Below, piece after piece: positions 316-56,547 of a stretch of 64,000 nucleotides of DNA. Origin of the DNA: Candidatus Latescibacterota bacterium (GTDB lineage: Bacteria > Latescibacterota > UBA2968 > UBA8231). The stretch is from positions 1,056,001 to 1,120,000 of the forward strand of contig CBDETK010000013.1 of the NCBI GenBank assembly GCA_965242865.1, read 5' to 3'. The notes beneath the pieces are model-generated. The model saw only the letters and a program-made list of their open reading frames with translations, was not told the origin of the DNA and did no database searches. The position numbers and the translations under genes were made by a program. Each line of letters starts with the position of its first letter. Positions within the stretch are counted from its first letter, which is position 1.

Positions 316-3300
316 TTAAAAGACTAGACGCCCACGCAACAGGAGGCCATGCTCGGCAGCACCGGCCACGCGCTGCCAGCGCGTACTCTCAAGGCTCACC
401 GACATCGACGAATCCACCTCAAAGCGCGTACCTAGGCGCAATTGCATTCGCTCTGGTGCTTGGGTCATGCCGCTGTACACAGTGTACAATCCGCGACCAC
501 CGGGCGCAGCTAGACCATAGCCGACCTCGGCTCGGAGCTGGCCTTGCGTGTTCACAGTACCCCGCTCCGTCAACTCGGCTACGCTGCGCTCCCACAGCGT
601 CAGGCTATTGGCCTGCGTGCCGTAGGTCGGCATCAGCCGCATCGACAGCCCTCGGCCATCAGTGCCTGATGCGCGTTGGATTAGCAGATGCGCCCCCCAC
701 TCGTTGTAGTCCCCTGGAGGAGCAACCAGACTCCGCGCCATAGCTTCGAGTGTGAAGCCGCTTCCCTCAAAACGCAGGCCACCGCCAACTTCCACGCCGG
801 CCCCAGTCTCTCCATCGCCGCCATCTTGGCGCAGAGCGACCTCTAGCTGGGGTGTCACCTGCCCATCCATGCCCATCTCGTACGCATGCGAGCCTTTAAG
901 CGCCAGCCTCAAGCGGTTGGCATTCACTGTCTGCTCGGCAATCCGGCCATCGCCCTTGACGTCGACTTGTGCGACTGTAGCCGCGCCTTTGACCCGCAAC
1001 CGAGTCGGCCCGCTGTCGAGCAAATCACCGCTAGCCCCTACACTTGCGGTCCTCAGCGCCGTGTCGCTCGACTGCTGGCCTATGGTCCCTTGCTCGTCGT
1101 CAATCTCGAGGTCGCCTCGTCCCAAGCCCGCTGTCAACCATACCCCCAACCGCCCGGGCGAGAACCCGATGTAAGGATGTAGGCTCAACATGCGGGTCGT
1201 ATAAGTACCATCGACTCGCTCTTCACCGAGCAAGGGAGCGGTATAATCAAACGATCCTTGCGCCCACGATAGAGCCAAGCCGGTTAGCATCTCGGCACCA
1301 GGCCGGGCGTCCAAACCAATCTGAGCACGGGTTAGATTGCCGTCCCAATCCAGCGAACCGTCGTCGCTAGATAATTTGCCGTAGTCTCCTCGGCCCCAAA
1401 ATGCAGGGCTACCGGGACAGACAATGCAGCCTCTACCGAAACCAAACGGCACTGCAAAGGACGAGCCATTCATAACCTGTGATAGACTGACCGGGCTGTT
1501 TTCAAAGATCCGGCCGGATTGAATCATGTCGTGGAGGGTGGACTCGGCGGCAAAGCGAAAAGAACCGCTCCCATCGCCAACTCTACCTATCTGCTCAAGG
1601 CGATTTTCGATGGCGCGATTCGTTCCATCGGCAATGGCCAATGCGTACTTGGACAGGATCTGGTCGTTGAGCTCGGCAAAACGGTCCGTAGCCGATTCTT
1701 CCACTCGGACCTCGAAGCTGAGGATGGCTGCGTCCTCAGCGGTCGTATTGTCGTCGGCGTCGTGGGCCGTATAAGTCAACGTGTACGTTCCGACTTCCGT
1801 CGGTGTGCCCGAAAGCATCGGCGACATGGGGTTGGGGTCAAACGTCAGACCCGGCGGCACATTATCTAGGGTATAGGTCAACTCGCCGGACTCGCCGTTG
1901 CCGTCTGGACTTAGCGAGAGCAAGTTGCCGCCTGAAGCCAAGGGCAACACCAAGCCTTCAATCGCCTCGCCTTCTATGTACGTCTGGTTGGCCACGGTCC
2001 CGCTAAAGCTGGGCGCGCCATCTATCGTTAGGTGAAAGGTCAATTCAGCCGAATCGCCATCCACATCCGCCACCCGGTAAACCAAGCGGTACACCCCTGT
2101 GTCCGTCGGCGTACCCGAAAGCGTCCGCGACGCAGCGTCGAAGCTCAGACCCGGCACGTTTAGAGCTAAACTATATGTCAACTCGCCGTTGCCGCCCAAA
2201 GCCGCCGGCAATTCCCACGGATCCATCGCCTCATTTTGACGCAAGATTCGATCCTCGATGGTCGTATCAAAGGCCGGTGTACCGTCAACTTTCAGGGAGA
2301 AGGTCACCTCGACCGAATCGCCGTCGCTATCCTCCGCCCGGTAGGTCAACTCATAGGTCTCGGCTTTGGTCGGCGTACCCGAAAGCGTCCGCGACGAGGC
2401 ATCAAATGTCAGCCCCGGCACCTCCGGCGACAGGCTATACGTCAACTCGCCGTTGCCGCCCAAAGCCGCCGGCAACTCCAACGGGGCCATCTCCTCCCCT
2501 TCGGCAATGGTCTGATTCGTAATAGTCCCCGCAAAGCTGGGCATACCGTTCACCGCAATGGTAAAGCTCAACTCCGCTGAATCGCTATCGACATCCGCCA
2601 CCCGATATGTCAACGCATAGCCCTCGGCAGAATACAACACATTAGGCGGCGGCGTACCCGCAATCGTCTGAGCCGTGGGATCAAACACCAAGCCCGGAGG
2701 TAATTCCCCTGCCAAGCTATACGTCAACGCCACATTCCCACCCAAAGCCGCCGGCAGAGCTAAACTCACCTCGTCGCCAGCCGTGTACATCTGATCCTCC
2801 ACGACCTGAGCATCGAAGCTGGGCATACCTTTCACCGCAATGGTGAAGCTCAACTCCGTCGAATCGCCATCCACATCCACCACCCGATACGTCAACACAC
2901 ATCCTTCGACATACAACGCATCCTTCGGCAGCGTACCCGCAATCGTCTGAGCCGTGGGATCAAACGCCAAGCCCGGAGGTAATTCCCCTGCCAAGCTATA
3001 CGTCAACGCCACATTCCCACCCGAAGCCATCGGCAGGGCTAAGCTGACCTCGTCTCCAGCCGTGTACATCTGGTCTTCTACGACCTGAGCACCGAAGCTG
3101 GGCATGCCAGCCACCACAATGGTAAAACTCAACTCGGCTGAATCGCCATCCACATCCGCCACTCCATACGTCAACCCATACCCCTCGGCATACAAAAGAT
3201 CCGCCGACAGATCGCCCGAAAGCGTCCGAGACGAGGCATCAAACGCCAGCCCCGGAGGCAACTCCCCCGTCAAACTATACGTCAACGACCCGTTACCGCC

Positions 3301-6300
3301 CGAAGCCGAGGGCAGCACCCAATCCCCTATCGACGACCCGGCAGCGAAGGTAATTTGATCCGCCACAGTTTCGTCGAAGCTGGGCATGCCAGCGACTGCA
3401 ATGGTAAAGCTCAACTCGGCCGAATCGCCATCCACATCCGCCACCCCATACGTCAACCCATACCCCTCGGCATACAACGCATCCAACGGCAGCGCACCCG
3501 AAAGCATCTGAGACGAGGCATCAAACGTCAGACCCGGAGGTAACTCCCCTGCCAAGCTATACGTCAACGCCACATTCCCACCCGAAGCCACCGGCAGAGC
3601 TAAACTCACCTCGTCGCCAGCCGTGTACATCTGATCGTCCACGACTTGGTCGCCGAAGCTGGGCATGCCAGCGACCACAATGGTGAAGCTCAACTCGGCT
3701 GAATCGCCATCCACATCCGCCACCCCATACATCAAATCATACCCCTCGGCATACAAAAGATCCGACGGCAGCGCACCCGAAAGCATCTGAGCCGTGGGAT
3801 CAAACGTCAGACCCGCAGGCAACTCACCCGTCAAACTATACGCCAACGACCCGTTACCGCCGGCCGCCATCGGCAGGGCTAAACTCACCTCGTCGCCAGC
3901 CGTGTACATCTGATCCTCCACGACCTGAGCACCGAAGCTGGGCATGCCAGCGACCACAATGGTGAAGCTCAACTCGGCTGAATCGCCATCCACATCCGCC
4001 ACTCCATACGTCAACCCATACCCCTCGGCATACAAAAGATCCGCCGACAGATCGCCCGAAAGCGTCCGAGACGAGGCATCAAACGCCAGCCCCGGAGGCA
4101 ACTCCCCCGTCAAACTATACGTCAACGACCCGTTACCGCCCGAAGCCGAGGGCAGCACCCAATCCCCTATCGACGACCCGGCAGCGAAGGTAATTTGATC
4201 CGCCACAGTTTCGTCGAAGCTGGGCATGCCAGCGACTGCAATGGTAAAGCTCAACTCGGCCGAATCGCCATCCACATCCGCCACCCCATACGTCAACCCA
4301 TACCCCTCGGCATACAACGCATCCAACGGCAGCGCACCCGAAAGCATCTGAGACGAGGCATCAAACGTCAGACCCGGAGGTAACTCCCCTGCCAAGCTAT
4401 ACGTCAACGCCACATTCCCACCCGAAGCCGCCGGCAGAGCTAAGCTGACCTCGTCGCCAGCCATGTACATCTGATCGTCCACGACTTGAGCACCGAAGCT
4501 GGGCATGCCGTTCACCGCAATGGTGAAGCTCAACTCGGCTGAATCGCCATCCACATCCGCCACCCGATACGTCAACGCATACCCCTCGGCAGCATACAAC
4601 ACATCCGTCGGCAGACCGCCCGAAAGCGTCTGAGACTCCGCATCAAACGCCAGACCCGGAGGCAATGCCCCCGCCAAGCTATACGACAACGCCACATTCC
4701 CACCCAAAGCCGCCGGCAGAGCTAAGTCCACTCCATCACCCGCGGTGTACATCTGGTCTTCTACGACTTGATCGCCGAAGCTAGGCATACCATTCACTAC
4801 TATCGTGAAGTCCAAAGTAGCTTCATCCCCGTCCGCATCGTTCACCATCAACGTCAATGAATATTCGGCTTGGTATAACCTATAAAGTGACGGCGTACCC
4901 GATAGTGTTCGAGTCGCGGCATCAAACTTTAGAAAACTCAGCTCCGACATCTGGTTACCGCGCAAGCTATACGTCAACTCGACATTGCCGCCATCCGCAT
5001 CCGGCAAAGTCAAGCTCATCTCCGCGCCTGCCGGATACGATGGCTTAGCGTCCACGGTCTTGTCGTCGCCGAAGCTGGGCATGCCATCCACCACTATCGT
5101 GAAGGGTAACTCAGCCGAATCGCCATCACCATCCCACACCTCCAACGTCAACTCATATTTATCGTCGTACACCACATCAGCAGGCGGCGTACCCGAAATC
5201 GTCCGCTTAGCGGGATCGTCATCAAACTCCAGACCCGGCGGCAGTTCCCCTTTCAGGCGATACTCCCATATCACATTCCCACCTGTCGGCTCCGGCAAAG
5301 TCAAGCTCATTGCCACGTCCGTCTGATACGGATCCTGCAGTCCATCCACGGTCTTGCCATCGAAGCTGGGCATGCCATCCACCACTATCGCAAAGCTCAA
5401 CACCGCATCATCGCCATCGGAATCCACCACCCGATAGGTGAACGCATATGACTCAGCATACACCACATCAGCAGGCGGCGTACCCGAAATCGTCCGAGAC
5501 CCAGCATCAAATACCAGACCCTCAGGCAACTCCCCGTCCAAGCTATACGTCAACGCTACATTCCCACCGACCGCCGCCGGCAGATCCAATTTTATCTCAT
5601 TGCCCGCTGTATATAGCTGGTCTTCCACAACCTGATCGCCGAAGCTGGGCATAGCAACCACCACAATCGTGAAGGTCAACTCAGCCGAATCGCCATCGGA
5701 ATCCACCACCCGATAGGTAAACGCATATGACTCAGCATACACCACATCAGCAGGCGGCGTACCCGAAATCGTCCGAGACCCAGCATCAAACACCAGACCC
5801 TCAGGCAACTCCCCATCCAAGCTATACGTCAGAGCGTCGATAGACCGACCCTCAGGCAACTCCCAAGGCTGTTTTATCTCTTCGCCTGCAGTAAAGGTTG
5901 TTTGACGCGCAGCGACCGCCGCAAAGGTAAGCTCCACCGAGATCGTAAAAGTCAATTCCTCCGCGTCGCTCTCCTCCATATTGGTATCGGAATCTTCTAC
6001 CCGGTAGGTCATTTCATACGTCCCAGCTACGGTCGGCGTACCCGAAAGCGTCCGCGACCCAGCATCAAACGTCAGCCCTGGCACTTCCGGTGACAAGCTA
6101 TATCTCGGAGGTGCCTCATGCTCGCCCACCAAAGCCTGAGGTAACTCCAGAACTCCTATCTCCTCGCCTGTCCGGTACGACTGAGCAGCAACCGTTGCCC
6201 CCTCAAAGCTCGGCATCGTATCGACTTCTATCTCGAATGTCAACGTGGCCGTATCGCCATCGGCATCCGTCGCCTCGTAAGTCATCAGGGAAATAGCCAC

Positions 6301-6891
6301 TTCCGAAGGCGTACCTGAAAGCGTCCGCGACGCCGCGTCAAACGTCAGACCCGGCGGCACAGGCCTTAAATTATATGTCAAATCGCCGTTACCACTTGAA
6401 GCCGCAGGCAACGCCAGAGCCTCTATTGCTACCCCGGCCGAGAACATCTGATCGGCAACCGTCGTACCGTCAAAGCTCGGAGCTACATCCTCCTCCTCTA
6501 CTGAAACATTGAATGTCAACATGACCGTAGCACCGTCGGCATCCGTCACTTCGTAGGTCATCAAGTAAAAGACCTTTTCCGGGAAGACGACAACATCCGA
6601 AGGCGTACCCAAAAGCGTCCGAGACCCGGCATCAAATGTCAAACCCGGCACCTCTGGCGACAGGCTATACGTAAGCTCGCCATTGCCTCCCGAAGCCGCA
6701 GGTAACTCCAGAGCCTCTATCGCCACCCCAGCCTCGTACACCTGATTGGCAACCGTCGCACCGTCAAAGCTCGGCGTATCCTGGGCCTCAGCCACCGGGA
6801 CCAACACCAAGGTGGCCGCCAGAAAGAAGATACTCAGGCAGAACAGCGATCTATTCCAAACAAGTCTGTTACTAACTGCACACCCGCTCAT
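316..6891 (-). CDS. Giant surface protein: signal peptide, ~18 putative Ig (He_PIG-like) repeats, C-terminal autotransporter-type beta-barrel
   Basis: 2191-aa ORF with ~93-aa repeats (LP.ASGGNG.LTYSL...PGL.FD...RTLSGTP...Y.V.D.DGD), an alpha-helical linker and a barrel-like C-terminus ending in F. Confidence 0.85.
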   Translation of the reverse strand: MSGCAVSNRLVWNRSLFCLSIFFLAATLVLVPVAEAQDTPSFDGATVANQVYEAGVAIEALELPAASGGNGELTYSLSPEVPGLTFDAGSRTLLGTPSDVVVFPEKVFYLMTYEVTDADGATVMLTFNVSVEEEDVAPSFDGTTVADQMFSAGVAIEALALPAASSGNGDLTYNLRPVPPGLTFDAASRTLSGTPSEVAISLMTYEATDADGDTATLTFEIEVDTMPSFEGATVAAQSYRTGEEIGVLELPQALVGEHEAPPRYSLSPEVPGLTFDAGSRTLSGTPTVAGTYEMTYRVEDSDTNMEESDAEELTFTISVELTFAAVAARQTTFTAGEEIKQPWELPEGRSIDALTYSLDGELPEGLVFDAGSRTISGTPPADVVYAESYAFTYRVVDSDGDSAELTFTIVVVAMPSFGDQVVEDQLYTAGNEIKLDLPAAVGGNVALTYSLDGELPEGLVFDAGSRTISGTPPADVVYAESYAFTYRVVDSDGDDAVLSFAIVVDGMPSFDGKTVDGLQDPYQTDVAMSLTLPEPTGGNVIWEYRLKGELPPGLEFDDDPAKRTISGTPPADVVYDDKYELTLEVWDGDGDSAELPFTIVVDGMPSFGDDKTVDAKPSYPAGAEMSLTLPDADGGNVELTYSLRGNQMSELSFLKFDAATRTLSGTPSLYRLYQAEYSLTLMVNDADGDEATLDFTIVVNGMPSFGDQVVEDQMYTAGDGVDLALPAALGGNVALSYSLAGALPPGLAFDAESQTLSGGLPTDVLYAAEGYALTYRVADVDGDSAELSFTIAVNGMPSFGAQVVDDQMYMAGDEVSLALPAASGGNVALTYSLAGELPPGLTFDASSQMLSGALPLDALYAEGYGLTYGVADVDGDSAELSFTIAVAGMPSFDETVADQITFAAGSSIGDWVLPSASGGNGSLTYSLTGELPPGLAFDASSRTLSGDLSADLLYAEGYGLTYGVADVDGDSAELSFTIVVAGMPSFGAQVVEDQMYTAGDEVSLALPMAAGGNGSLAYSLTGELPAGLTFDPTAQMLSGALPSDLLYAEGYDLMYGVADVDGDSAELSFTIVVAGMPSFGDQVVDDQMYTAGDEVSLALPVASGGNVALTYSLAGELPPGLTFDASSQMLSGALPLDALYAEGYGLTYGVADVDGDSAELSFTIAVAGMPSFDETVADQITFAAGSSIGDWVLPSASGGNGSLTYSLTGELPPGLAFDASSRTLSGDLSADLLYAEGYGLTYGVADVDGDSAELSFTIVVAGMPSFGAQVVEDQMYTAGDEVSLALPMASGGNVALTYSLAGELPPGLAFDPTAQTIAGTLPKDALYVEGCVLTYRVVDVDGDSTELSFTIAVKGMPSFDAQVVEDQMYTAGDEVSLALPAALGGNVALTYSLAGELPPGLVFDPTAQTIAGTPPPNVLYSAEGYALTYRVADVDSDSAELSFTIAVNGMPSFAGTITNQTIAEGEEMAPLELPAALGGNGELTYSLSPEVPGLTFDASSRTLSGTPTKAETYELTYRAEDSDGDSVEVTFSLKVDGTPAFDTTIEDRILRQNEAMDPWELPAALGGNGELTYSLALNVPGLSFDAASRTLSGTPTDTGVYRLVYRVADVDGDSAELTFHLTIDGAPSFSGTVANQTYIEGEAIEGLVLPLASGGNLLSLSPDGNGESGELTYTLDNVPPGLTFDPNPMSPMLSGTPTEVGTYTLTYTAHDADDNTTAEDAAILSFEVRVEESATDRFAELNDQILSKYALAIADGTNRAIENRLEQIGRVGDGSGSFRFAAESTLHDMIQSGRIFENSPVSLSQVMNGSSFAVPFGFGRGCIVCPGSPAFWGRGDYGKLSSDDGSLDWDGNLTRAQIGLDARPGAEMLTGLALSWAQGSFDYTAPLLGEERVDGTYTTRMLSLHPYIGFSPGRLGVWLTAGLGRGDLEIDDEQGTIGQQSSDTALRTASVGASGDLLDSGPTRLRVKGAATVAQVDVKGDGRIAEQTVNANRLRLALKGSHAYEMGMDGQVTPQLEVALRQDGGDGETGAGVEVGGGLRFEGSGFTLEAMARSLVAPPGDYNEWGAHLLIQRASGTDGRGLSMRLMPTYGTQANSLTLWERSVAELTERGTVNTQGQLRAEVGYGLAAPGGRGLYTVYSGMTQAPERMQLRLGTRFEVDSSMSVSLESTRWQRVAGAAEHGLLLRGRLVF
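3030..4505. repeat. Near-identical intragenic duplication with 840-bp offset
   Basis: Shadow ORFs 3104-3358/3944-4198 and 3355-3543/4195-4383 translate identically. Boundaries are approximate. Confidence 0.85.
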
Positions 6892-19260: not shown

Positions 19261-19337
<77 letters not shown>

Positions 19338-21276: not shown

Positions 21277-22795
21277 GGGGATTGAATGTCAGATCTATCG
21301 ATACGAGCGCGCCTTGAGCCTGAGCTATGGGGAGCAACGGACTTATATCCACAATCCGGTTGGTGGTTAGCGACAGATTAGTCAAGCTGGTTAGGCTGCC
21401 CAACGCACTCACATTCACAATCCGGTTGGTGTGTAGATTCAGGGTTGTCAGATTGGTTAGGTTGCCCAACGCACTCACATTCACAATCCGGTTGTTGCGT
21501 AGGCTCAGGTATGTCAGATTAGTTAGGCTGCCCAACGCACTCACATTCACAATCTGGTTGTCGCGTAGGCTCAGGTATGTCAGATTAGTTAGGCTGCCCA
21601 ACGCACTCACATTCACAATCTGGTTGTCGCGTAGGCTCAGGTATGTCAGATTAGTTAGGTTGCCCAACGCACTCACACTCGTAATCGAGTTGCCCCTCAG
21701 CTCCAGCCTTGTCAGACTGGTTAGGTTAGCCAGCGGCCTCAAGTCCGTAATCGAGTTGTTCCACCCTAGCTCCAGCGTCTCCAGTGCTGTCGCGTGTTCG
21801 AGGCCGGTCAAGTCCGCAATGCTTCGACTGTTCGCTCGGAGTAAGGTCAGAGAAGCCAGATCCGCCGGGGTAATATCCCTAGGCGGGCAACCATCCGTGG
21901 GGCAAACTGTCCACCGCACCGCAAGCTCCAGATTGGCGTCGGGGATGAGTTTTTGTTCCGGTTCTTCTGGATAGACTTGGGCGGTTTCGACGCGGGGGTA
22001 TTTTTCTAGTACCGCTACGACGCGGAGGCCGCTTGTTATCGCGGCGGCGAGTTGTTGGTTGGCCGCGTGCTGGCTAAGGGCGTTTTCCATCACGCCCAGC
22101 CATTGCAGGTTCGTCAGGCTGGCCAAGGGACTGACATCCGCAATGTCGTTGTCTCCTAGCTGGATCCATTGCAGGTTCGTTAGGCGAGCTAACGGACTCA
22201 CGTCGGTAATCGCGTTGCCCCACATATCCAGCGTGCGCAAGCGGATCAGGCTGGCCAGCGGACTCGCATCCGCCACCTTGTTCCCCCACAGCGACAACGT
22301 TTGAAGGTTGGTCAAGCGGGCCAACGGCTGCACATCGGTAATCGCGTTGCCCCGCAGATACAGCGTGTGCAGGGCCGTTGCGTGTTCAAGGCCGGCCACG
22401 CTCTCAATGTTTTTATAGCTCGCGTCGAGTTCGGTTAGGGCCGCCAAATCTGCCGGGGTCAGCGGCCCTGACGGGCGGTCCAACGCCTCCCGCACCGCTC
22501 GCTCCAAATTGGCGTCGGCGAACTCCACGGTCGCCGATTGAGTGCTATCGGCGTCAGCGTCGGTCTGGGTGCTATCGGCTTCGGCGTCGGTCTGGGTGGT
22601 GTCGGGGCTTTCGGGGGCGGGCAGCCCGTCGGTAGCGGTGTAGGTATCGTCGCCCAAGAATTCGCACAAGGAACAGGTGGCTTTGCCCGCCGGCCGAGAG
22701 GCGACCGGCGCGGAGTCTGAGCAGCCGATCCAAGTGCTGACGATGCCCAAAAGGACGAACCCAAGCAGGGTTTTTATCGATTTCAACGAAAGCAT
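21203..22795 (-). CDS. Internalin-like leucine-rich-repeat lipoprotein (paralog A: LRR + LRR)
   Basis: AAGGAG RBS, lipobox WIGC, FADANLE cap, 22-aa LxxLTNLxxLxLxxNxI repeats in two blocks. Confidence 0.88.
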   Translation of the reverse strand: MLSLKSIKTLLGFVLLGIVSTWIGCSDSAPVASRPAGKATCSLCEFLGDDTYTATDGLPAPESPDTTQTDAEADSTQTDADADSTQSATVEFADANLERAVREALDRPSGPLTPADLAALTELDASYKNIESVAGLEHATALHTLYLRGNAITDVQPLARLTNLQTLSLWGNKVADASPLASLIRLRTLDMWGNAITDVSPLARLTNLQWIQLGDNDIADVSPLASLTNLQWLGVMENALSQHAANQQLAAAITSGLRVVAVLEKYPRVETAQVYPEEPEQKLIPDANLELAVRWTVCPTDGCPPRDITPADLASLTLLRANSRSIADLTGLEHATALETLELGWNNSITDLRPLANLTSLTRLELRGNSITSVSALGNLTNLTYLSLRDNQIVNVSALGSLTNLTYLSLRDNQIVNVSALGSLTNLTYLSLRNNRIVNVSALGNLTNLTTLNLHTNRIVNVSALGSLTSLTNLSLTTNRIVDISPLLPIAQAQGALVSIDLTFNPLSQTSHNLVPTMRGHGANVERTQI

Positions 22796-23132
22796 TTTTT
22801 GCTCCTTTGTATGGATATGGTGTGGAAACAGGAAGAGAGGCATGACGCACCCAAAGAGGCAGAGCTAGCCCTAGGGCTGTGCTTGGAGCACTCAGAACGC
22901 GCCTCTTGCTGTGGGTGCGCCTTTGCTGGTGTTCTGGCGGCGTCCGGGGCGAGGAGATTCCGCCCTCGGTTTTTGGCAGACAGCTTGCGGGGGTGGTGCC
23001 GTAAACGGGGACCAGCATAAAGGCCGCACGGCAGCGTGCGCTTGGGGCCACGCGGCCAGATCGACGCGCCGCCCAATGGCCGCGCACGAGCCGTCGGCCG
23101 ATGCTGAGAAGTAGAGAGTGTAGTGCTTGGTG

Positions 23133-23246
23133 CTAGCGGAGAATTTTCGGGGGGGTGGGGGTGGGGGTTAAGTCGTTGTTTTTCAAGTACTTACGACACA
23201 TTAAATTTGACGATGAATCCAAGCACTCAACAGGGTTTTGCCCCAT
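23133..23246 (-). CDS. Putative upstream leader ORF crossing the interrupted poly-C tract (copy A)
   Basis: MGQNPV...RKYLKNNDLTPTPTPPKILR*, same frame and length as copy B; AGGGG lies 7 nt before the ATG. Alternative starts extend to 23315. Confidence 0.45.
   Translation of the reverse strand: MGQNPVECLDSSSNLMCRKYLKNNDLTPTPTPPKILR
23149..23168. repeat. Interrupted homopolymer tract G7TG5TG5T
   Basis: Read directly; same position and length as G20 at 54887-54906. Confidence 0.9.
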
Positions 23247-23326: not shown

Positions 23327-23432
23327 TAACGGGCAGGCACGGGGGCCTGCCCCAACGCCTATAATTCTAACGGGCAGGCACGGGGGCCTGCCCCAACGAA
23401 ATTCTAACGGGCAGGCACGGGGGGCCGCCCCT
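23327..23432. repeat. Three tandem REP-like hairpins
   Basis: TAACGGGCAGGCACGGGGGCCTGCCCCAACG twice plus one degenerate copy; stem GGGCAGGC/GCCTGCCC. Confidence 0.85.
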
Positions 23433-23534
23433 GATTTAGGTTCTTTGCCGTCGTTAAATAAAAGCCTAAACACAGAAGCCGCAACCTTGCTTACTTCTAA
23501 GGCCCCAAGGTGGGTTTGCGGAGTAGACCGCTTC

Positions 23535-46210: not shown

Positions 46211-47947
46211 CTAGTACGTCCTGTACACCACCCTAGTACCACTTGCTCGAATGGCGGGGATGTGAGTGGTGATTGATGCTCTGCTGAGGGGATTGTCCAC
46301 CAGATACAGGACGCCTAGGTTGGTTAGGCCGGCCAACGGACTCACGTCCTCAATCTCATTCTCGTCCAGACTCAACGATTTTAGGTTGGTCAGGCTCGCC
46401 AGCGAACCCACATCCGAAATCTCGTTATTATCCAGGGTCAACCATTTTAGGTTGGTCAGGCTCGCCAACGAACCCACGCCCGAAATCTCGTTACCGCCCA
46501 GACGCAACCATTCTAGGTTGGTCAGGCTGGCCAACGGACTTATATCCGAAATCTCGTTACTGGCCAGATAAAGATGATCTTTTAGGTTGGTCAGGCTCGC
46601 CAGCGAACCCACGTCCGAAATCTCGTTATTATCCAGCTTCAGCCCTTTTAGGTTGGTCAGGCTCGCCAACGAACCCACGTCCGAAATCTCGTTGTTCGAC
46701 AGGTCCAGCGTTCGCAGGTTGGTCAGGCTCGCCAACGAACCCACGTCCGAAATCTCGTTGTTCGACAGGTCCAGCGTTCGCAGGTTGGTCAGGCCGGCCA
46801 ACGGACGCAAATCCGTAATTTCGTTGCGCGACAGATATAGCTCTTGCAGTGCCGTCGCGTGTTCGAGGCCGGCCAAGCTCCGAATGTTGGTACCATTCGC
46901 TGAGAGCACGGTCAAGTGAGCCAGATCCGCCGGGTAAAGGGGCTGCCCGTGCGGGAGACGCGGGAAAGCCAGCACCGCCCGCACCTCCTCCTCCAGATTG
47001 GGGTCGGCGAACTCAACGGCTACCGCGCCCAGGTCCGCTTCCCTTTCTATCACAACGGCTACCGCGCCCAGGTCCGCTTCCGGTTCTATGGACTCGCTGA
47101 TGAGGTCGTTCGTGCCCAGCCATTGCAGGTTAGTCAGGCTCGCTAACGGACTCGTGTCCGCAATCTCGTTCTTCTCTAGCTGCAGCCATCGCAGGTTAGT
47201 TAGGCTGGCTAACGGACGCACGTCCGTAATTTGGTTCCCCCACAGCGACAGCACTCGCAGGTTGGTCAGGCTCGCCAACGGACGCACGTCCGTAATCTTG
47301 TTCCCCCACAGCGACAGCTTCCAAAGGTTGGTCAGGCTCGCCAGCGGACGCACGTCCGTAATTTGGTTGCGCCGCAGATATAGCTCTTGCAGTGCCGTCG
47401 CGTGTTCGAGGCCGGCCAAGCTCTGAATGTTTCTATCGCTCGCGTCGAGATAGGTCAGGGACGCCAGACCGGCCGCGGTAAGAGGCTGCCCGTGCGGGAG
47501 TTCCAATGCCTCCCGCACCGCCGCCGCCAGATTGGCGTCGGCGAACACAATGGCGTCGGCGGTTTCGGCTGGAGTGCTATCGGTTTCGTCGTCGGTCTCG
47601 CCATCGGTTTCGTCGTCGGTCTCGCCATCGGTCTCGCCATCGGTCTGGGTGCTATCGGGGCTTTCTACCGGCCCCTGCCCGCCCGCCTCGGTGCTATCGG
47701 CGGCGGTCTCGGTCTGGGTACTATCGGGCTCGGCGGTCTGGGTGCTATCGGGGCTTTCTATCGGCTCCTGCCCGTCAGCCGCGATGTAGGTCTCGTCGTC
47801 CAAGAAATCGCACAAGGCACAGGTGGCTTTGCCCGCCGGACGAGAGGCCACCGGCGCGGAGGTCCGTTCCGAGCAGCCCATCCAAGCCCCGACGAGGCCC
47901 AAAAGGACGAACCCAAGCAGGGTTTTTATCGATTTCAACAGTGGCAT
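46211..47947 (-). CDS. Internalin-like LRR lipoprotein (paralog C)
   Basis: AAGGAG RBS, lipobox WMGC, RPAGKATCALC, acidic linker, two cap+LRR blocks. Confidence 0.88.
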   Translation of the reverse strand: MPLLKSIKTLLGFVLLGLVGAWMGCSERTSAPVASRPAGKATCALCDFLDDETYIAADGQEPIESPDSTQTAEPDSTQTETAADSTEAGGQGPVESPDSTQTDGETDGETDDETDGETDDETDSTPAETADAIVFADANLAAAVREALELPHGQPLTAAGLASLTYLDASDRNIQSLAGLEHATALQELYLRRNQITDVRPLASLTNLWKLSLWGNKITDVRPLASLTNLRVLSLWGNQITDVRPLASLTNLRWLQLEKNEIADTSPLASLTNLQWLGTNDLISESIEPEADLGAVAVVIEREADLGAVAVEFADPNLEEEVRAVLAFPRLPHGQPLYPADLAHLTVLSANGTNIRSLAGLEHATALQELYLSRNEITDLRPLAGLTNLRTLDLSNNEISDVGSLASLTNLRTLDLSNNEISDVGSLASLTNLKGLKLDNNEISDVGSLASLTNLKDHLYLASNEISDISPLASLTNLEWLRLGGNEISGVGSLASLTNLKWLTLDNNEISDVGSLASLTNLKSLSLDENEIEDVSPLAGLTNLGVLYLVDNPLSRASITTHIPAIRASGTRVVYRTY

Positions 47948-48097
47948 TTTATGCTCCTTATGGAGGGTAGATACCAATCGCTTTTTGCAGTTCAGAAAAA
48001 CCATCATCAAGTTGCTTTTCAAGCCGATCCAAGCGAGGCAGAAGCTAATCTACGATCCCTTCCGGCCGCCCCACGCGCCTGCTAAAGAACAAAAAGT

Positions 48098-48574
48098 TCA
48101 GCCGCCTCTCAAGAGGATGGTTACAAGCAAGCCGACAACGCCAAACTGAATGCTAATCACCCAGTACAGTAGCCGGTCAAAGCGGCGGTTGCTTTCCTCA
48201 AAGCGGCGATTGCTTTCGGCATTGATCGCGTCAAAGCGGCGATTGCTCTCCTCGTGGCGGCGATTGCTCTCCTCGTGGCGGCGATTGCTCTCCTCGTTGA
48301 TCGCGTCAAAGCGGCGGCGGCTTTCCTCAAAGCGGCGGTTGCTTTCCTCGTTGATCGCGTCAAAGCGGCGATTGCTCTCCTCGTGGCGGCGGTTGCTCTC
48401 CTCAATCGCTTGCCGCAGTTCTTCTCGAGTTGCAGTAATCATTTGCCGCAGTTCTTCAAGGCTGCGATCCACGGCATCAAAACGCTTATCCAACTGTACG
48501 ACGACCTCTTCCAGCCGCCCCACGCGCCGCTCCAAATCGCGGTCTTGATCTTGATCCAGCGTAGGAACACTCAT
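48098..48574 (-). CDS. Membrane-anchored coiled-coil protein (DUF1640/CCDC90-like)
   Basis: EESNRRH / EESNRRFDAIN repeats, C-terminal TM helix, AGGAG RBS. Confidence 0.75.
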   Translation of the reverse strand: MSVPTLDQDQDRDLERRVGRLEEVVVQLDKRFDAVDRSLEELRQMITATREELRQAIEESNRRHEESNRRFDAINEESNRRFEESRRRFDAINEESNRRHEESNRRHEESNRRFDAINAESNRRFEESNRRFDRLLYWVISIQFGVVGLLVTILLRGG

Positions 48575-52874: not shown

Positions 52875-54524
52875 CTACCAAATACCCAGCGCGAGGCGAT
52901 ATGGATACTCCAACCCCGTGGCGATGAAGTCTTCGACCATTATTGTGCCATCCAAGTTGGCCCGCTGAATTTTACCCGAGCCCCAGTCCGCCCAGTATAT
53001 CTTTCCACGCGCCGCATCCACTGCGAGGCCCCATGGCGTCGTCACCCCCGTGGCGATGAAGTCTTCGACCATTATTGTGCCATCCAAGTTGGCCCGCTGA
53101 ATTTTACCCGGGCCCGGATGCACCCAGGTCACCCAGTATATCTTTCTGTTCACCAAATCCAGCGCGAGGCCCGATGCATTATTCAATCCCGTGATGAGGT
53201 CTTGGTCCTCTGAGCCATCCAACTTGGCATACCGAATCTTATTCAAGCTCCAGTCCGTCCAGTATATCTTTCCGCCCACCACATCCAGCGCGATGCTCTG
53301 TGGCGTACCCAATCCCATGGTGACGATGTTTTGGCGTTCTGAGCCATCCAAGTTGGCACGCCCAATATGATCCGGGCTGCCCCCGTCCGTCCAGTATATC
53401 TTTCTGTTCACCGAATCCACCGCGATGCCATTTGGACTATCCAATCCCATGGTGATGATGTCTCGGCGGTCTGAGCCATCCAAGTTGGCACGCCCAATCG
53501 TACCCGGGTCGCCGTTCGTCCAGTATATCTTTCCGCGCACCACATCCAGCGCGATGTCATTTGGAACACCCAATCCCGTAAGGAAGTCTTGGCGGCCTGA
53601 GTCATCCAAGTTGACACGCCCAATCTTACCCGTGCCCAGGCCAAGGTTAAGGTCCGTCCAGTATAGGGCGGGCACTGGTTCCGGTTCCGGCGGCTCTGGA
53701 TAGACTTGGACGGTTTCGACGCGGGGGTATTTTTCTAGTACCGCTTCGACGCGGAGGCCGCTTGTTATCGCGGCGGCGAGTTGTTGGTTGGCCGCGTGCT
53801 GGCTAAGGGCGTTTTCCATCACGCCCAGCCATTGCAGGTTGGTCAGGCTGGCCAAGGGACTCACGTCCGCAATGTCGTTGTCACCTAGATTGAGAAATTG
53901 CAGCTTGATTAGGCCCGCTAACGGCTGCACATCCGTAATTTCATTGCCCCACATATCCAACGTGCGCAAGCGGATCAGGCTGGCCAGCGGACTCGCATCC
54001 GCCACCTTGTTGCCCCACAGCGACAACGTTTGCAGGTTGGTCAAGCGGGCCAACGGCTGCACGTCGGTAATCGCGTTGCCTCGCAGATACAACGTTGTCA
54101 GGGCCGTTGCGTGTTCAAGGCCGGCCACGCTCTCAATGTTTTTATAACTCGCGTCAAGTTCGGTTAGGGTCGCCAAGTCCGCCGGGGTAATCGGCCCTTG
54201 TGGGCGGTCCAACGCTTCCCGTACCGCTCGCTCCAGATTGGCGTCGGCAAACTCCACGGCAGCCGATTGGGTGCTATCGGCGTCGGCGTCGGTCTGGGTG
54301 CTATCGGCGTCGGCGTCGGTCTGAGTGGTGTCAGGGCTTTCAGGGGCGGGCAGCCCGTCGGTAGCAGTGTAGGCGTCGTCGCCCAAGAACTCGCACAAGG
54401 AACAGGTGGCTTTGCCCGCCGGCCGAGAGGCCACCGGCGCGGAGTCTGAGCAGCCCGTCCAAGCCCCGACGATGCCCAAAAGGACGAACGCAAACAGGGT
54501 TTTGAGAGATTTCAACGAAAGCAT
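52875..54524 (-). CDS. Lipoprotein with LRR block + six-bladed YWTD (LDL-receptor class B) beta-propeller (paralog B)
   Basis: N-half nearly identical to paralog A, then LYWTD/IYWTN/IYWTD/IYWTD/IYWVT/IYWAD with RANLDG repeats. Confidence 0.88.
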   Translation of the reverse strand: MLSLKSLKTLFAFVLLGIVGAWTGCSDSAPVASRPAGKATCSLCEFLGDDAYTATDGLPAPESPDTTQTDADADSTQTDADADSTQSAAVEFADANLERAVREALDRPQGPITPADLATLTELDASYKNIESVAGLEHATALTTLYLRGNAITDVQPLARLTNLQTLSLWGNKVADASPLASLIRLRTLDMWGNEITDVQPLAGLIKLQFLNLGDNDIADVSPLASLTNLQWLGVMENALSQHAANQQLAAAITSGLRVEAVLEKYPRVETVQVYPEPPEPEPVPALYWTDLNLGLGTGKIGRVNLDDSGRQDFLTGLGVPNDIALDVVRGKIYWTNGDPGTIGRANLDGSDRRDIITMGLDSPNGIAVDSVNRKIYWTDGGSPDHIGRANLDGSERQNIVTMGLGTPQSIALDVVGGKIYWTDWSLNKIRYAKLDGSEDQDLITGLNNASGLALDLVNRKIYWVTWVHPGPGKIQRANLDGTIMVEDFIATGVTTPWGLAVDAARGKIYWADWGSGKIQRANLDGTIMVEDFIATGLEYPYRLALGIW

Positions 54525-54870
54525 TTTTTGCTCCTTTGTATGGTTGGGGAAGAAATGGTATGGAGGTGTGGAAGAGGGGCAGGACGCCCCGAAAGAGGCA
54601 GAGTTAGCCCTAGGGCTAACTTGGAGTGCTCAGGACGCGCCCCTTGCTGTGGGTACGCCTTTGCTAGTGTTCTCGCGGTGTCTGGAGCGAAGAGATTCCG
54701 CCCTCGGTCCTTGGCAGACAGCTTGCGGGGGTGGTGCAGTAAACGGGGATCAGCATAAAGGCCGCACGGTAGCGTGCGCTTGGGGTCGTGCGGCCAGACC
54801 GACGCGCCGCCCAACAGCCGCACACGAGCCGTCGGCCTATGCTGAGAAGTGGAGCGTTTAGTGCTTGGTG

Positions 54871-54984
54871 CTAGCGGATAATTTTCGGGGGGGGGGGGGG
54901 GGGGGGTAAGTCGTTGTTTTTCAAGGACTTACGACACATTAAATTTGACGACGATTCCAAGCACCCAACAGGGTTTTGCCCCAT
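54871..54984 (-). CDS. Putative upstream leader ORF crossing the C20 tract (copy B)
   Basis: MGQNPV...RKSLKNNDLPPPPPPPKIIR*. Confidence 0.45.
   Translation of the reverse strand: MGQNPVGCLESSSNLMCRKSLKNNDLPPPPPPPKIIR
54887..54906. repeat. G20 homopolymer (C20 on the coding strand)
   Basis: Read directly; the length may be affected by assembly error. Confidence 0.9.
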
Positions 54985-55064
54985 AGCAAGGCCCCTGCCT
55001 GATGTGAAATGCTTAACCATCGTCTCGTTCATTACGTCAACCGATCGTGCCAAATTTGCCGCTG

Positions 55065-55166
55065 TAACGGGCAGGCACGGGGGCCTGCCCCAACGGGATT
55101 CTAACGGGCAGGCACGGGGGCCTGCCCCAACGGGATTCTAACGGGCAGGCACGGGGGGCCGCCCCT
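55065..55166. repeat. Three tandem REP-like hairpins
   Basis: Same units as 23327-23432, with GGATTC spacers. Confidence 0.85.
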
Positions 55167-55323
55167 GATTTCGGTTATTTGCCGTCGGGCCATAATTAAA
55201 AGCCTAAACACAGAAGCCGCAATCTGCTTACTTCTAAGAAGCATATAGTTTTCAGACAACTTCTAACGATACACGCCTGAGATACTCGGCCTCCTGTTTT
55301 TCGTATGTGAAGCAACGTTCGCG

Positions 55324-56547
55324 CTACCGTCTTGGGCTCCGCCAATAGGTTAGTTCCCGCCAACTCCATTCCAACGGGCCGTACCGGAAACGCCTCAGTA
55401 CCAGCGGCGACCACCAGAGCTGGATGCCCCACACAGCGAAGACAACAATGGCCTGTTGCCAGCGGTCAACGCGCCCGAATAACCCAAATCCATGCCCATA
55501 AAAAATAGTCGTGCAGATCAGGGTTTGCGCGATGTAATTGGTAAACGCCATCCGACCCGTAGCGGCCAAGCGCATCTGTAACGCCGAGAACCATCGGCGT
55601 CGAACCGCCAGCATCGCGAGGCCAACGTATCCAAACGCCATAGCGAGGCTGCCCCAATAGCTGAACTGCGACCCCAGAAACATTGAACGCTCCCAACTCC
55701 ACCCGACCGCAAAATTCCACCATGCACCCGCAGCAACGACCGGTACACTAACACCGAACCCGATGAGCGCGAGCCTGCGATAGAATACAGCGCTTCGGGC
55801 CGCGCTCAGGATTTGCCAGCGGTAGAGGGCCATGCCCAGCAGCATGAGGCCCGCGGACTGCCAGAGAAGCCTGATTGGCAGGGCCATCGTGTGCATGGCC
55901 AGCGTATCCGTGCTCCGCTGCGCCTGCTGGGTGAACCATCCGCCGCGGTACGCGAGCAACTCCGCATCAATTTTGGCCGCGTCCGGCGCCCAAAACGCTA
56001 TGATTTCCGCGGCGTCCTTATCGGAGATAAACTCCGTTGTCATGCCTGTTGCGGTGTAGAGAATGCTCGCCACTGAAAAGACCGCGAGGCCGCTGACCAC
56101 CAAGGTGCGCGGCGAGCGGTTGCGCAACAAAAAGAGGACGGAGCCGCAAAGCGCGTACGTGACTAATATATCGCCCGACCACAGGAAATAGGCATGTACC
56201 AGGCCGAAGAGGAGCAGACAGAACATGCGCCGGTAGTGCAAGCCGGCCGAGCGACCGCTGCGAGCCTCTACGCGATCGGCAAACAAGCAGATGCCCGCCC
56301 CAAAAAGAAGCGAGAACATCGACAAAAACTTCTGATCGACGAACAGGTAGCTAACCAGCCAGACAAAAAAGTTGATACCGCTGAGATCGCCATATACCGT
56401 GGGGTTAAAATACGCGGCCAAAGGCATTGCAAACGCCTGGATGTTCATAACCAGTATGCCAAGCACGGCGAAGCCGCGGAGCACATCCAAGCTCGCGATG
56501 CGATCCGAGGCCGCAACTGGACTGTTTAGCTCGCGTTTGTGGTACAT
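55324..56547 (-). CDS. DUF418 (YeiB-like) membrane protein
   Basis: RIASLDVLRGFAVLGILVMNI, KF..MFSLLFGAG, GRMAFTNYIAQ, GPLEW.WR.LTY. Confidence 0.92.
   Translation of the reverse strand: MYHKRELNSPVAASDRIASLDVLRGFAVLGILVMNIQAFAMPLAAYFNPTVYGDLSGINFFVWLVSYLFVDQKFLSMFSLLFGAGICLFADRVEARSGRSAGLHYRRMFCLLLFGLVHAYFLWSGDILVTYALCGSVLFLLRNRSPRTLVVSGLAVFSVASILYTATGMTTEFISDKDAAEIIAFWAPDAAKIDAELLAYRGGWFTQQAQRSTDTLAMHTMALPIRLLWQSAGLMLLGMALYRWQILSAARSAVFYRRLALIGFGVSVPVVAAGAWWNFAVGWSWERSMFLGSQFSYWGSLAMAFGYVGLAMLAVRRRWFSALQMRLAATGRMAFTNYIAQTLICTTIFYGHGFGLFGRVDRWQQAIVVFAVWGIQLWWSPLVLRRFRYGPLEWSWRELTYWRSPRR

Follow-up and report, generated by a model that had tools for sequence, protein, structure and literature searches.

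Repeat tracts that switch surface proteins are known from several wirings. In Neisseria, such tracts lie in the 5' coding region or the signal peptide of surface-protein genes, as in pilC and opa, and in hpuAB a poly-G tract in the upstream lipoprotein gene hpuA silences hpuB too. Homopolymers can also act via promoter spacing, as do the poly-C tracts of the Bordetella fim genes and the promoter homopolymers of Neisseria opc and porA, and lipoprotein families of the Mycoplasma vlp/vsp type carry a poly-A homopolymer in the promoter. Phase-variable genes with poly-G tracts are described for Campylobacter. Here, we analysed a stretch of 64,000 nucleotides (nt) from a Candidatus Latescibacterota bacterium (GenBank assembly GCA_965242865.1, contig CBDETK010000013.1, positions 1,056,001 to 1,120,000; hereafter the window, numbered from its first letter), in which a run of 20 C's (C20; 54887-54906, minus strand) lies within a leader open reading frame (ORF) upstream of a lipoprotein gene. 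An initial annotation of the window had proposed that the length of this tract switches the gene on or off through read-through of the leader. Our analysis supports this proposal as the best reading of the locus, and we consider it likely that C20 is a slipped-strand frame switch in a translated leader ORF that gates the downstream gene via translational coupling or Rho polarity.

The locus is similar to pilC, opa and the Campylobacter poly-G genes in that a G/C run shifts the frame near an N-terminus at many loci, which code for surface or secreted proteins; moreover, members of the same cassette that are fused in frame to their gene would work exactly like these tracts. By contrast, the tract in the window lies ~360 nt upstream in a separate leader ORF, so that the lipoprotein sequence is never altered, and it has a conserved, portable flanking cassette that is common to unrelated genes. 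As in hpuAB, a frame switch in an upstream ORF (uORF) would control a downstream cistron on one transcript; however, while the upstream ORF of hpuAB encodes a functional protein, the uORF in the window is without amino-acid constraint beyond the cassette and apparently only serves as a ribosome track to the next start codon. With Bordetella fim, opc and porA, the locus shares a poly-C of ~12-15 nt upstream of surface-protein genes at several paralogous loci, but those switches carry no frame information, whereas the present leaders keep their frames and a promoter of this kind was not detected. Similarly, the Mycoplasma families have in common with the present one the many lipoprotein paralogues, the conserved 5' region and signal peptide with a homopolymer, the variable repetitive bodies and the fact that only some members are ON; they differ in that the poly-C described here lies in a translated leader, as well as in phylum and lifestyle, the Latescibacterota in question being sponge-associated. 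Finally, uORF-dependent Rho attenuation in tnaC-tnaAB and Rho-dependent phase variation by invertible DNA in Escherichia coli fimS and Clostridioides difficile flgB have been described (PMC12360218). In these systems, as proposed here for a C-rich leader in a genome with a rho gene, Rho termination ahead of the structural genes depends on whether a leader ORF is translated or on the state of a heritable DNA switch. Unlike the metabolite or the recombinase-catalysed inversion used there, the signal here would be replication slippage in a uORF, and the role of Rho is a prediction.

The tract reads as G20 on the plus strand, encodes proline in every frame, and is the sole homopolymer of more than 8 nt within the 64-kb window. 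On the minus strand, on which all features of the locus lie, its context is ...ATGTGTCGTAAGTCCTTGAAAAACAACGACTTA-C20-GAAAATTATCCGCTAGCACC..., and a conserved 25-mer, TAAGTCCTTGAAAAACAACGACTTA (54907-54931), is located directly 5' of it. This 25-mer is the core of the cassette and encodes (R)KSLKNNDL, and the codon boundary of the upstream ORF falls at the first C of the tract. In the current frame, the leader ORF (55053-54871) reads ...MCRKSLKNNDL-PPPPPPP-KIIR*, i.e. the tract is followed by the short tail KIIR (54871-54886) with a TAG at 54873-54871. The part of the ORF before the tract (54907-55053) contains four in-frame start candidates, TTG 55053, ATG 55032, ATG 55020 and ATG 54939. The initial annotation had the ORF begin at TTG 55053; we find that the start is probably an in-frame ATG instead, either ATG 55020, the product of which begins MVKHFTSGRGL... 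and which is conserved in relatives with a homologous ATGG(T/G)... start region, or ATG 54939, the product of which begins MCRKSLKNNDL. No strong Shine-Dalgarno (SD) sequence was evident by eye ahead of these ATGs in the leaders of this type.

When the tract length is a multiple of three, as in C18 or C21, the frame entered past the tract is open for 375 nt (124 codons and a TGA; 54512-54886). This spacer frame, which starts at the tract end, is referred to as f0. Its TGA (54514-54512), within ATGCTTTCGTTGA, overlaps codons 4-5 of the lipoprotein gene and ends 13 nt inside this gene (ATG 54524-54522). With C19 or C22, translation would instead reach a TAA at 54858-54860, and the three post-tract frames consequently end at +375, +16 and +29 nt. 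In all these respects, i.e. the position of the tract, the leader ORF on the minus strand, its frames and their stops, a re-reading of the sequence agreed with the initial annotation. No Pfam family was matched by the 124-aa f0 peptide. The lipoprotein gene (52875-54524) is preceded by the SD sequence AAGGAG (54531-54536) and encodes a protein of 549 amino acids (aa) with leucine-rich repeats (LRR) and five low-density lipoprotein (LDL)-receptor class B (YWTD) repeats (Pfam LRR_4, 5e-24; Ldl_recept_b, 1.9e-42). Judged by eye, its signal peptide, which ends in ...GAWTGC, is lipoprotein-like. The designation of the product as an adhesin in the initial annotation is only a guess from the LRR and YWTD repeats.

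The window contains a second copy of the leader, copy A, with the 25-mer at 23193-23169 and the tract at 23168-23149 (23149-23193 in total, minus strand). As previously described, its spacer frame is also open (366 nt; 22783-23148) and its TGA lies 13 nt inside an all-LRR lipoprotein gene (ATG 22795; Pfam LRR_4, 1.8e-57); moreover, the two frames share the end ...IQRSKKCFR*, and indels account for a net difference of 9 nt between the leaders. The tract of copy A, ACCCCCACCCCCACCCCCCC, has 20 nt but is interrupted (C5-A-C5-A-C7), with C7 as its longest pure run. By frame, copy A is OFF, and its tract is probably less mutable. On the basis of these two copies, the initial annotation had kept chance retention of the frame as an alternative and had suggested a comparison of all copies in the genome and in relatives.

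In the genome (6.0 Mb, 13 contigs), a BLAST search with a 900-nt region as query gave 46 clusters of matches. The conserved flanks TTGAAAAACAACGACTTA and GAAAATTCTCCGCTAGCACC surround a C run of 8-25 nt in 29 of these clusters, the lipoprotein start is retained in 27 of the 29, and the SD sequence is kept in 27/27. With stops counted up to 12 nt before the ATG, f0 was stop-free in 24/27 copies. Copies without a stop numbered 0 and 1 for the two remaining sense frames, and 2, 0 and 1 for the three frames on the antisense strand; the mean number of stops per copy was 0.22 in f0 vs 2.2-4.0 in the other frames. Moreover, in 22/27 copies some frame ends ≤25 nt from the ATG, i.e. at ATG+13, in an ATGA or at a TAA 11 nt before the ATG, vs 2.9 copies expected from dinucleotide-preserving shuffles of each leader. 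The distance from tract to ATG equals 2 mod 3 in 21/27 copies, and does so across 11 distinct lengths (263-476 nt), while the remaining two distance classes together hold 6 copies with 5 distinct lengths. On the other side of the tract, the leader frame is open for at least 126 nt in 26/27 copies, and the two wrong exits are closed promptly, by a stop ending 16 nt past the tract in 27/27 copies and by one ending 29 nt past it in 21/27. We conclude that retention of f0 exceeds chance. An antisense ORF (54406-54861) considered as the source of the frame constraint was rejected, since neither copy A nor most of the other copies have it intact.

How the frame has been retained is evident from the differences between copies. 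The leaders are of two types, which are distinguished by an unrelated middle segment of ~200 nt. Indel events of at least 3 nt number six in the 19 type I leaders, and each is a multiple of three (123, 3, 3, 33, 9 and 15 nt); indels of 1-2 nt occur at four sites, in four different combinations each of which restores the frame, and in uncompensated combinations in three copies. In type II leaders, f0 is open in 6/8 copies despite the unrelated middle segment. Substitutions, by contrast, are spread over all codon positions of f0 (41, 63 and 45 distinct substitutions at the first, second and third positions) with no codon-position bias, compared with 22, 13 and 53 in the first 210 nt of the lipoprotein gene and 25, 27 and 31 in the 126 nt before the tract. 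Among the copies, substitution accounts for a single kind of premature f0 stop, the TAA 11 nt before the ATG, which is found in three of them. In the copy at position 1729062 of contig C13, a 1-nt deletion 24 nt past the tract shifts the open path to another frame, and the TAA that closes this frame has been removed. By these counts, the leader frame is kept while its peptide is not, as the initial annotation had noted for the first two copies, and the frame-preserving and compensating indels point to continuing selection.

The downstream lipoprotein genes are intact in 24/27 copies, encoding proteins of 474-596 aa with LRR and often YWTD motifs. The other three (contig C13, positions 1453047, 1729062 and 2595559) are truncated to 236, 228 and 90 aa, one of them also having a frameshifted leader, and are probably decaying. 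The leader at C13:5563796 has a 123-nt (3 x 41) tandem duplication of its start including a second post-tract sequence, and its frame is still open.

A cassette that acts through the frame has to be read by ribosomes, and evidence on this point comes from its occurrences outside the leaders. The 25-mer, in the form TAAGTC(C/G)TTGAAAAACAAC(G/A)ACTTA, has 41 matches in the genome (≤5 mismatches), 40 of which are followed by a C run, and ~11 of which lie outside the LRR-lipoprotein leaders. These non-leader cassettes read M-x4-(K/R/N)SLKNNxL-(Pro)n with a GGAG 5-8 nt ahead of the ATG, and are followed, in one of the three frames, by a long ORF with a signal-peptide start. Three paralogous ORFs run uninterrupted across the tract and encode proteins of 756 aa (fn3, GSDH and cytochrome c domains), 534 aa (arylsulfotransferase-like) and 501 aa (no Pfam family); others among the non-leader ORFs are out of frame by one or two bases. 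In the 756-aa and 534-aa families, the only in-frame start with a complete signal peptide is the one upstream of the tract, preceded by the GGAG; because there is no usable start between the tract and the hydrophobic core, translation in these families starts upstream of the tract. In the 501-aa family, an internal ATG could serve as start too. Moreover, in the nine codons before the tract, frequent variants occur at third positions, namely those of TCN (G32/A11/C7/T6), TTR (A36/G18) and AAY (T32/C18), while first and second positions are nearly fixed and the eighth codon varies freely; this comparison is not informative on positions that belong to the search motif. The imperfect palindrome in the 25-mer gave no sign of covariation, with 7.48 paired positions vs 7.40 for shuffled partners in 40 instances, nearly all of which are from this genome. 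We take the in-frame fusions, the synonymous variants and the lack of palindrome covariation as evidence that ribosomes translate the cassette in the frame leading into the tract. The fusions and the synonymous variants also lend indirect support to a translated uORF in the LRR leaders. The cassette is modular, with ~29 copies in LRR-lipoprotein leaders and ~11 at other genes of the genome, some of them fused in frame to a signal peptide.

We extended the comparison to 31 genomes of the genus, in which the pattern AAAAACAANNNNTTA followed by at least 8 C's was sought. The pattern was present in 14 of the 31 genomes, including the present one, with 28 sites here and 21, 10, 9, 4, 4 and fewer in the others, while a reversed control pattern had no match in any of the 31. 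We examined 56 sites from 12 genomes. At 45 of these, the tract is followed by an ORF of at least 100 aa that has an SD-like site and starts at least 150 nt past the tract; among the 11 set aside, 10 lacked such a downstream candidate and one had its start at +96. In 32 of the 45 loci (6.1 expected), one frame that begins at the tract ends no more than 25 nt from the SD-preceded start, and in 37 (11.2 expected) one frame reaches at least that far. The frame ends are stereotyped: TAA in cTAAaggag (-12/-13), TGAnnnATG (-3), ATGA (+4), +13 and +22, and the +13 end recurs in the LRR orthologue of another species. These leaders differ from those in the present genome in sequence and length (190-390 nt) and precede other genes. 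Five further sites are in-frame fusions to long ORFs. Both other frames stop ≤60 nt past the tract in 34/51 loci, compared with 22% at random positions in the same loci. Other species of this sponge-associated Latescibacterota genus use the cassette in both modes, as a leader and as a fusion. In a species-representative collection, 54/64 pattern-matching stretches come from records of Candidatus Latescibacterota or Latescibacteria, and the window sequence is present in sponge metagenomes.

These data bear on a different kind of length switch, in which the tract would lie in or near a promoter or form G-quadruplex (G4) or i-motif DNA, and its absolute length would set transcription irrespective of frames. 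The imperfect palindrome beside the tract is a possible binding site, the tract is followed by GAAAAT, and tract lengths cluster at 13-14 both here and in relatives, all of which would suit such a switch. However, a scan of 54450-55350 gave 0 matches to a sigma-70-like promoter (a weak scan, the promoters of the phylum being uncharacterised), and the spacer between TTGAAA and GAAAAT amounts to 12+n, i.e. at least 20 nt. Moreover, the palindrome does not covary, and the cassette serves as coding sequence ahead of the signal peptide in paralogous genes. If absolute length were what counts, the open frame in 24/27 copies here and 32/45 loci in relatives, the frame-keeping indels and the prompt stops in the other frames would have no explanation. 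We therefore regard a purely transcriptional switch as quite unlikely.

A frame switch requires a tract that changes in length. Genome-wide, there are 36 G/C runs of at least 11 nt, 29 of them in this cassette, and only one A/T run of more than 9 nt. Where the flanks of two leader copies agreed at 114/120 bases or more, the tract length was the same in 8/57 pairs and different in 49/57. At orthologous loci of two species pairs (94.7% and 96.8% identity over 1.9-2.0 kb), the tracts have 12 vs 14 and 15 vs 12 nt. On the preferred reading, tract length would also change within a population. Contig C7 was considered as an allelic variant of the locus C13:4675719 and was rejected; the similarity is partial, with 97% identity over 1.3 kb and 87% at the cassette. 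No near-identical strain was found among metagenome contigs searched with the DUF418 protein encoded next to the locus, the 38 loci recovered having ≤53% identity over full-length matches. By tract length, 5/27 LRR leaders are ON and 22/27 are OFF; among the five, the entry frame of one is shifted by a 1-nt insertion in the cassette and the leader of another is not in phase with the gene, leaving three canonical ON copies. ON loci include 891384, 1175281 and 5088927 on contig C13. In relatives, 10/51 loci are ON, which gives 15/78 for all cassette loci together. The window copy is itself OFF by its length (20 = 2 mod 3). The downstream genes are nevertheless kept, 24/27 being intact though 22/27 are OFF by frame.

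On the preferred reading of C20 as a frame switch, the locus would work as follows. Replication slippage would change the length of the C run, which would act as a contingency tract. Translation would be initiated at an in-frame ATG that precedes the tract; the ribosomes would read ...(R)KSLKNNDL and then translate the C run as polyproline. At lengths of 0 mod 3 (C18, C21), they would go on for 124 codons through the otherwise untranslated 362-nt leader and terminate at the TGA overlapping lipoprotein codons 4-5; at any other length, they would meet a stop 4-9 codons past the tract. Translation of the whole leader would be needed for expression of the lipoprotein, while the leader peptide itself would be without function. 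This scheme supposes a transcription start upstream of the tract and gating of the downstream gene by leader translation, both of which we infer. Two links between leader and gene are conceivable. First, translation could shield the C-rich, G-poor and weakly structured leader from Rho. Of its 362 nt, 130 are C and 86 G, the last 62 nt have 26 C and 5 G, and the C/G ratio over all leader copies is 1.46; for the last 56 nt, less pairing is predicted than for the leader as a whole (unpaired probability 0.62 vs 0.47). The genome encodes Rho (Rho_RNA_bind match with 119 bits in a 468-aa frame), as well as MutS and MutL. In terms of these predictions, the C-rich leader and the rho gene fit Rho loading on an untranslated leader in the OFF phases. 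Second, the stop could be coupled to the overlapping start by termination-reinitiation, which the stop-on-start geometry would fit. The two are not separable here. Both need the uORF to reach the start region, which is the conserved feature.

Alternatively, the tract could act at the RNA level as a rheostat, with RNA polymerase slippage mixing frames, or with a G-rich small RNA or a protein binding the poly-C in a length-dependent manner, so that expression would be graded. Runs of 13-25 nt suffice for slippage in known systems. Helicobacter offers a precedent in RepG-tlpB, where a small RNA regulates its target via a homopolymer of variable length in the mRNA leader (PMC8295292). In the window, nothing points to a partner RNA, and the sole Rfam match is a tRNA (19261-19334). 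The frame architecture is explained only if the frame matters, and slippage by the polymerase would blur a frame switch rather than replace it. A rheostat in place of the frame switch is therefore very unlikely.

Several observations weigh against a frame switch gating the lipoprotein gene. Of the 27 leaders, three do not keep phase with the gene start and another two carry a stop 48 nt ahead of the ATG, yet the genes behind all five are intact. Stop-creating substitutions are no rarer in f0 than in other frames (3 observed vs 3.4 expected, a comparison of low power). The SD of the lipoprotein gene is not predicted to be sequestered, the mean unpaired probability being 0.38 for the SD, 0.56 for the ribosome-binding site window and 0.47 for the leader, and the predicted minimum-energy fold leaves most of the SD region open; with an SD this strong, translation without the uORF could occur. 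The scan that found no sigma-70-like promoter for a transcriptional switch found none upstream of the tract either, and transcription of the LRR leaders could start downstream of it. The share of ON loci is below the one third expected for random lengths, which, with the clustering of lengths at 13-14, could reflect a length optimum unrelated to the frame. In the public run X1, which may be the source sample, a 95-nt contig covers the whole tract at exactly 20 bases and with no difference; contigs thus show one length at this locus, and homopolymer lengths in assemblies can be wrong. Finally, the paralogues are not independent; by downstream protein, the relatives have ~20 families of the uORF type in our own grouping, ~10-12 of which have the geometry.

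Some of these points would be accounted for if the cassette and its leader were a relic, moved by recombination from genes in which the cassette is the true N-terminus. The open frame would then be inherited, and the lipoprotein would be made from its own SD at any tract length. Such a history would suit a leader frame without amino-acid constraint and without depletion of stop-creating substitutions, a strong SD that is not predicted to be sequestered, and the loss of the exact geometry in 5/27 leaders with intact genes. However, the frame-preserving and compensating indels point to selection that continues, and the unrelated middle segment of the type II leaders is stop-free too. Moreover, leaders of 190-390 nt that are not homologous and that precede different genes in other species also end at the start codon, and the C runs remain long and mostly pure, making up 29 of the 36 longest G/C runs of the genome. 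On balance, we consider a relic unlikely and favour the frame switch.

Other features of the window and genome touch on this locus. Three tandem G+C-rich hairpin units of ~37 nt (55061-55187, minus strand) lie between the upstream DUF418 gene and the leader; units of this kind (GGGGCAGGCCCCCGTGCCTGCCC..) are also found at 23364-23453, their number varies among leader copies, and some copies have unrelated sequence in their place. A third LRR-lipoprotein paralogue in the window (~46300-47960, minus strand) has the same SD and signal peptide (88-89% identity over 92 nt) and neither leader nor poly-C cassette; the genome-wide BLAST search gave about eight cassette-less paralogues. Just upstream of this paralogue, a short tandem array with 21/33/54-nt periodicity (GTCAAAGCGGCGATTGCT...) occupies 48176-48403. 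A long array of direct repeats of ~264-294 nt (families D2-D4 and D6-D8) at 2000-6800 presumably belongs to the gene for a giant repeat protein.

The genome also has a second class of homopolymers, in which a poly-G of 8-19 nt directly follows the start codon (..TAAATTTATGAAGTT-Gn or ATGAGAAT-Gn) and is itself followed by a signal-peptide-like sequence. Five of the 36 long G/C runs belong to this class, lying directly after ATGA(A/G).. start codons of signal peptides. The loci of the class are on contig C13 at 286111, 1268321, 1273848, 1277969, 1847247, 2462705, 3492055, 3870535, 3875003 and 4639354 and are probably another set of frame switches. In addition, genomes labelled Alphaproteobacteria, Binatia and Pseudomonadales (records L217, L201 and L163/L194) have runs of C11-C17 after ...AAAAACAA....TTA, followed by frames of 421-1143 nt. 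These runs are without the TAAGTC cassette and may be analogous switches in other bacteria.

In the available parts of the literature searched, in which subscription journals were not covered, we found neither a switch with a repeat tract in a uORF nor anything on phase variation in Latescibacterota. We conclude that the locus wires a known principle in a new way and is one case of a cassette that occurs across the lineage. Tentatively, the observations can be extended to a portable phase-variation cassette that has spread over at least ten unrelated gene families in at least 14 species of a sponge-symbiont genus, and that consists of an ORF start, (R/H)KSLKNNxL, poly-C and stops in both wrong frames. 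It might act either by fusion to a signal peptide or by a 'ribosome track' uORF with the sole function of carrying ribosomes, in one tract phase out of three, over a Rho-sensitive leader to the next start, and might thereby give a combinatorial, heritable and reversible repertoire of eukaryote-like LRR/YWTD surface lipoproteins facing the animal host. We regard this extension as possible and hold it with distinctly less confidence than the switch at the window locus.

To our knowledge, phase variation by repeat tracts has been described almost only in vertebrate pathogens and commensals. The present lineage of Latescibacterota, which is uncultured and sponge-associated, seems to have some forty to fifty switches based on homopolymers, mostly on genes for secreted proteins or lipoproteins with eukaryote-like LRR and YWTD repeats; eukaryote-like proteins of these types are thought to mediate recognition between symbiont and host in sponges. 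Loci of this kind are now called pseudogenes or spurious small ORFs in metagenome-assembled genomes. If our reading is true, a recognisable cassette would allow annotation pipelines to flag phase-variable genes in such genomes, and a non-coding 'ribosome track' uORF that ends on a start codon would be a new switch wiring in which the product is switched yet unaltered. Moreover, stochastic surface variation would be part of mutualistic or commensal life in an early-branching animal.

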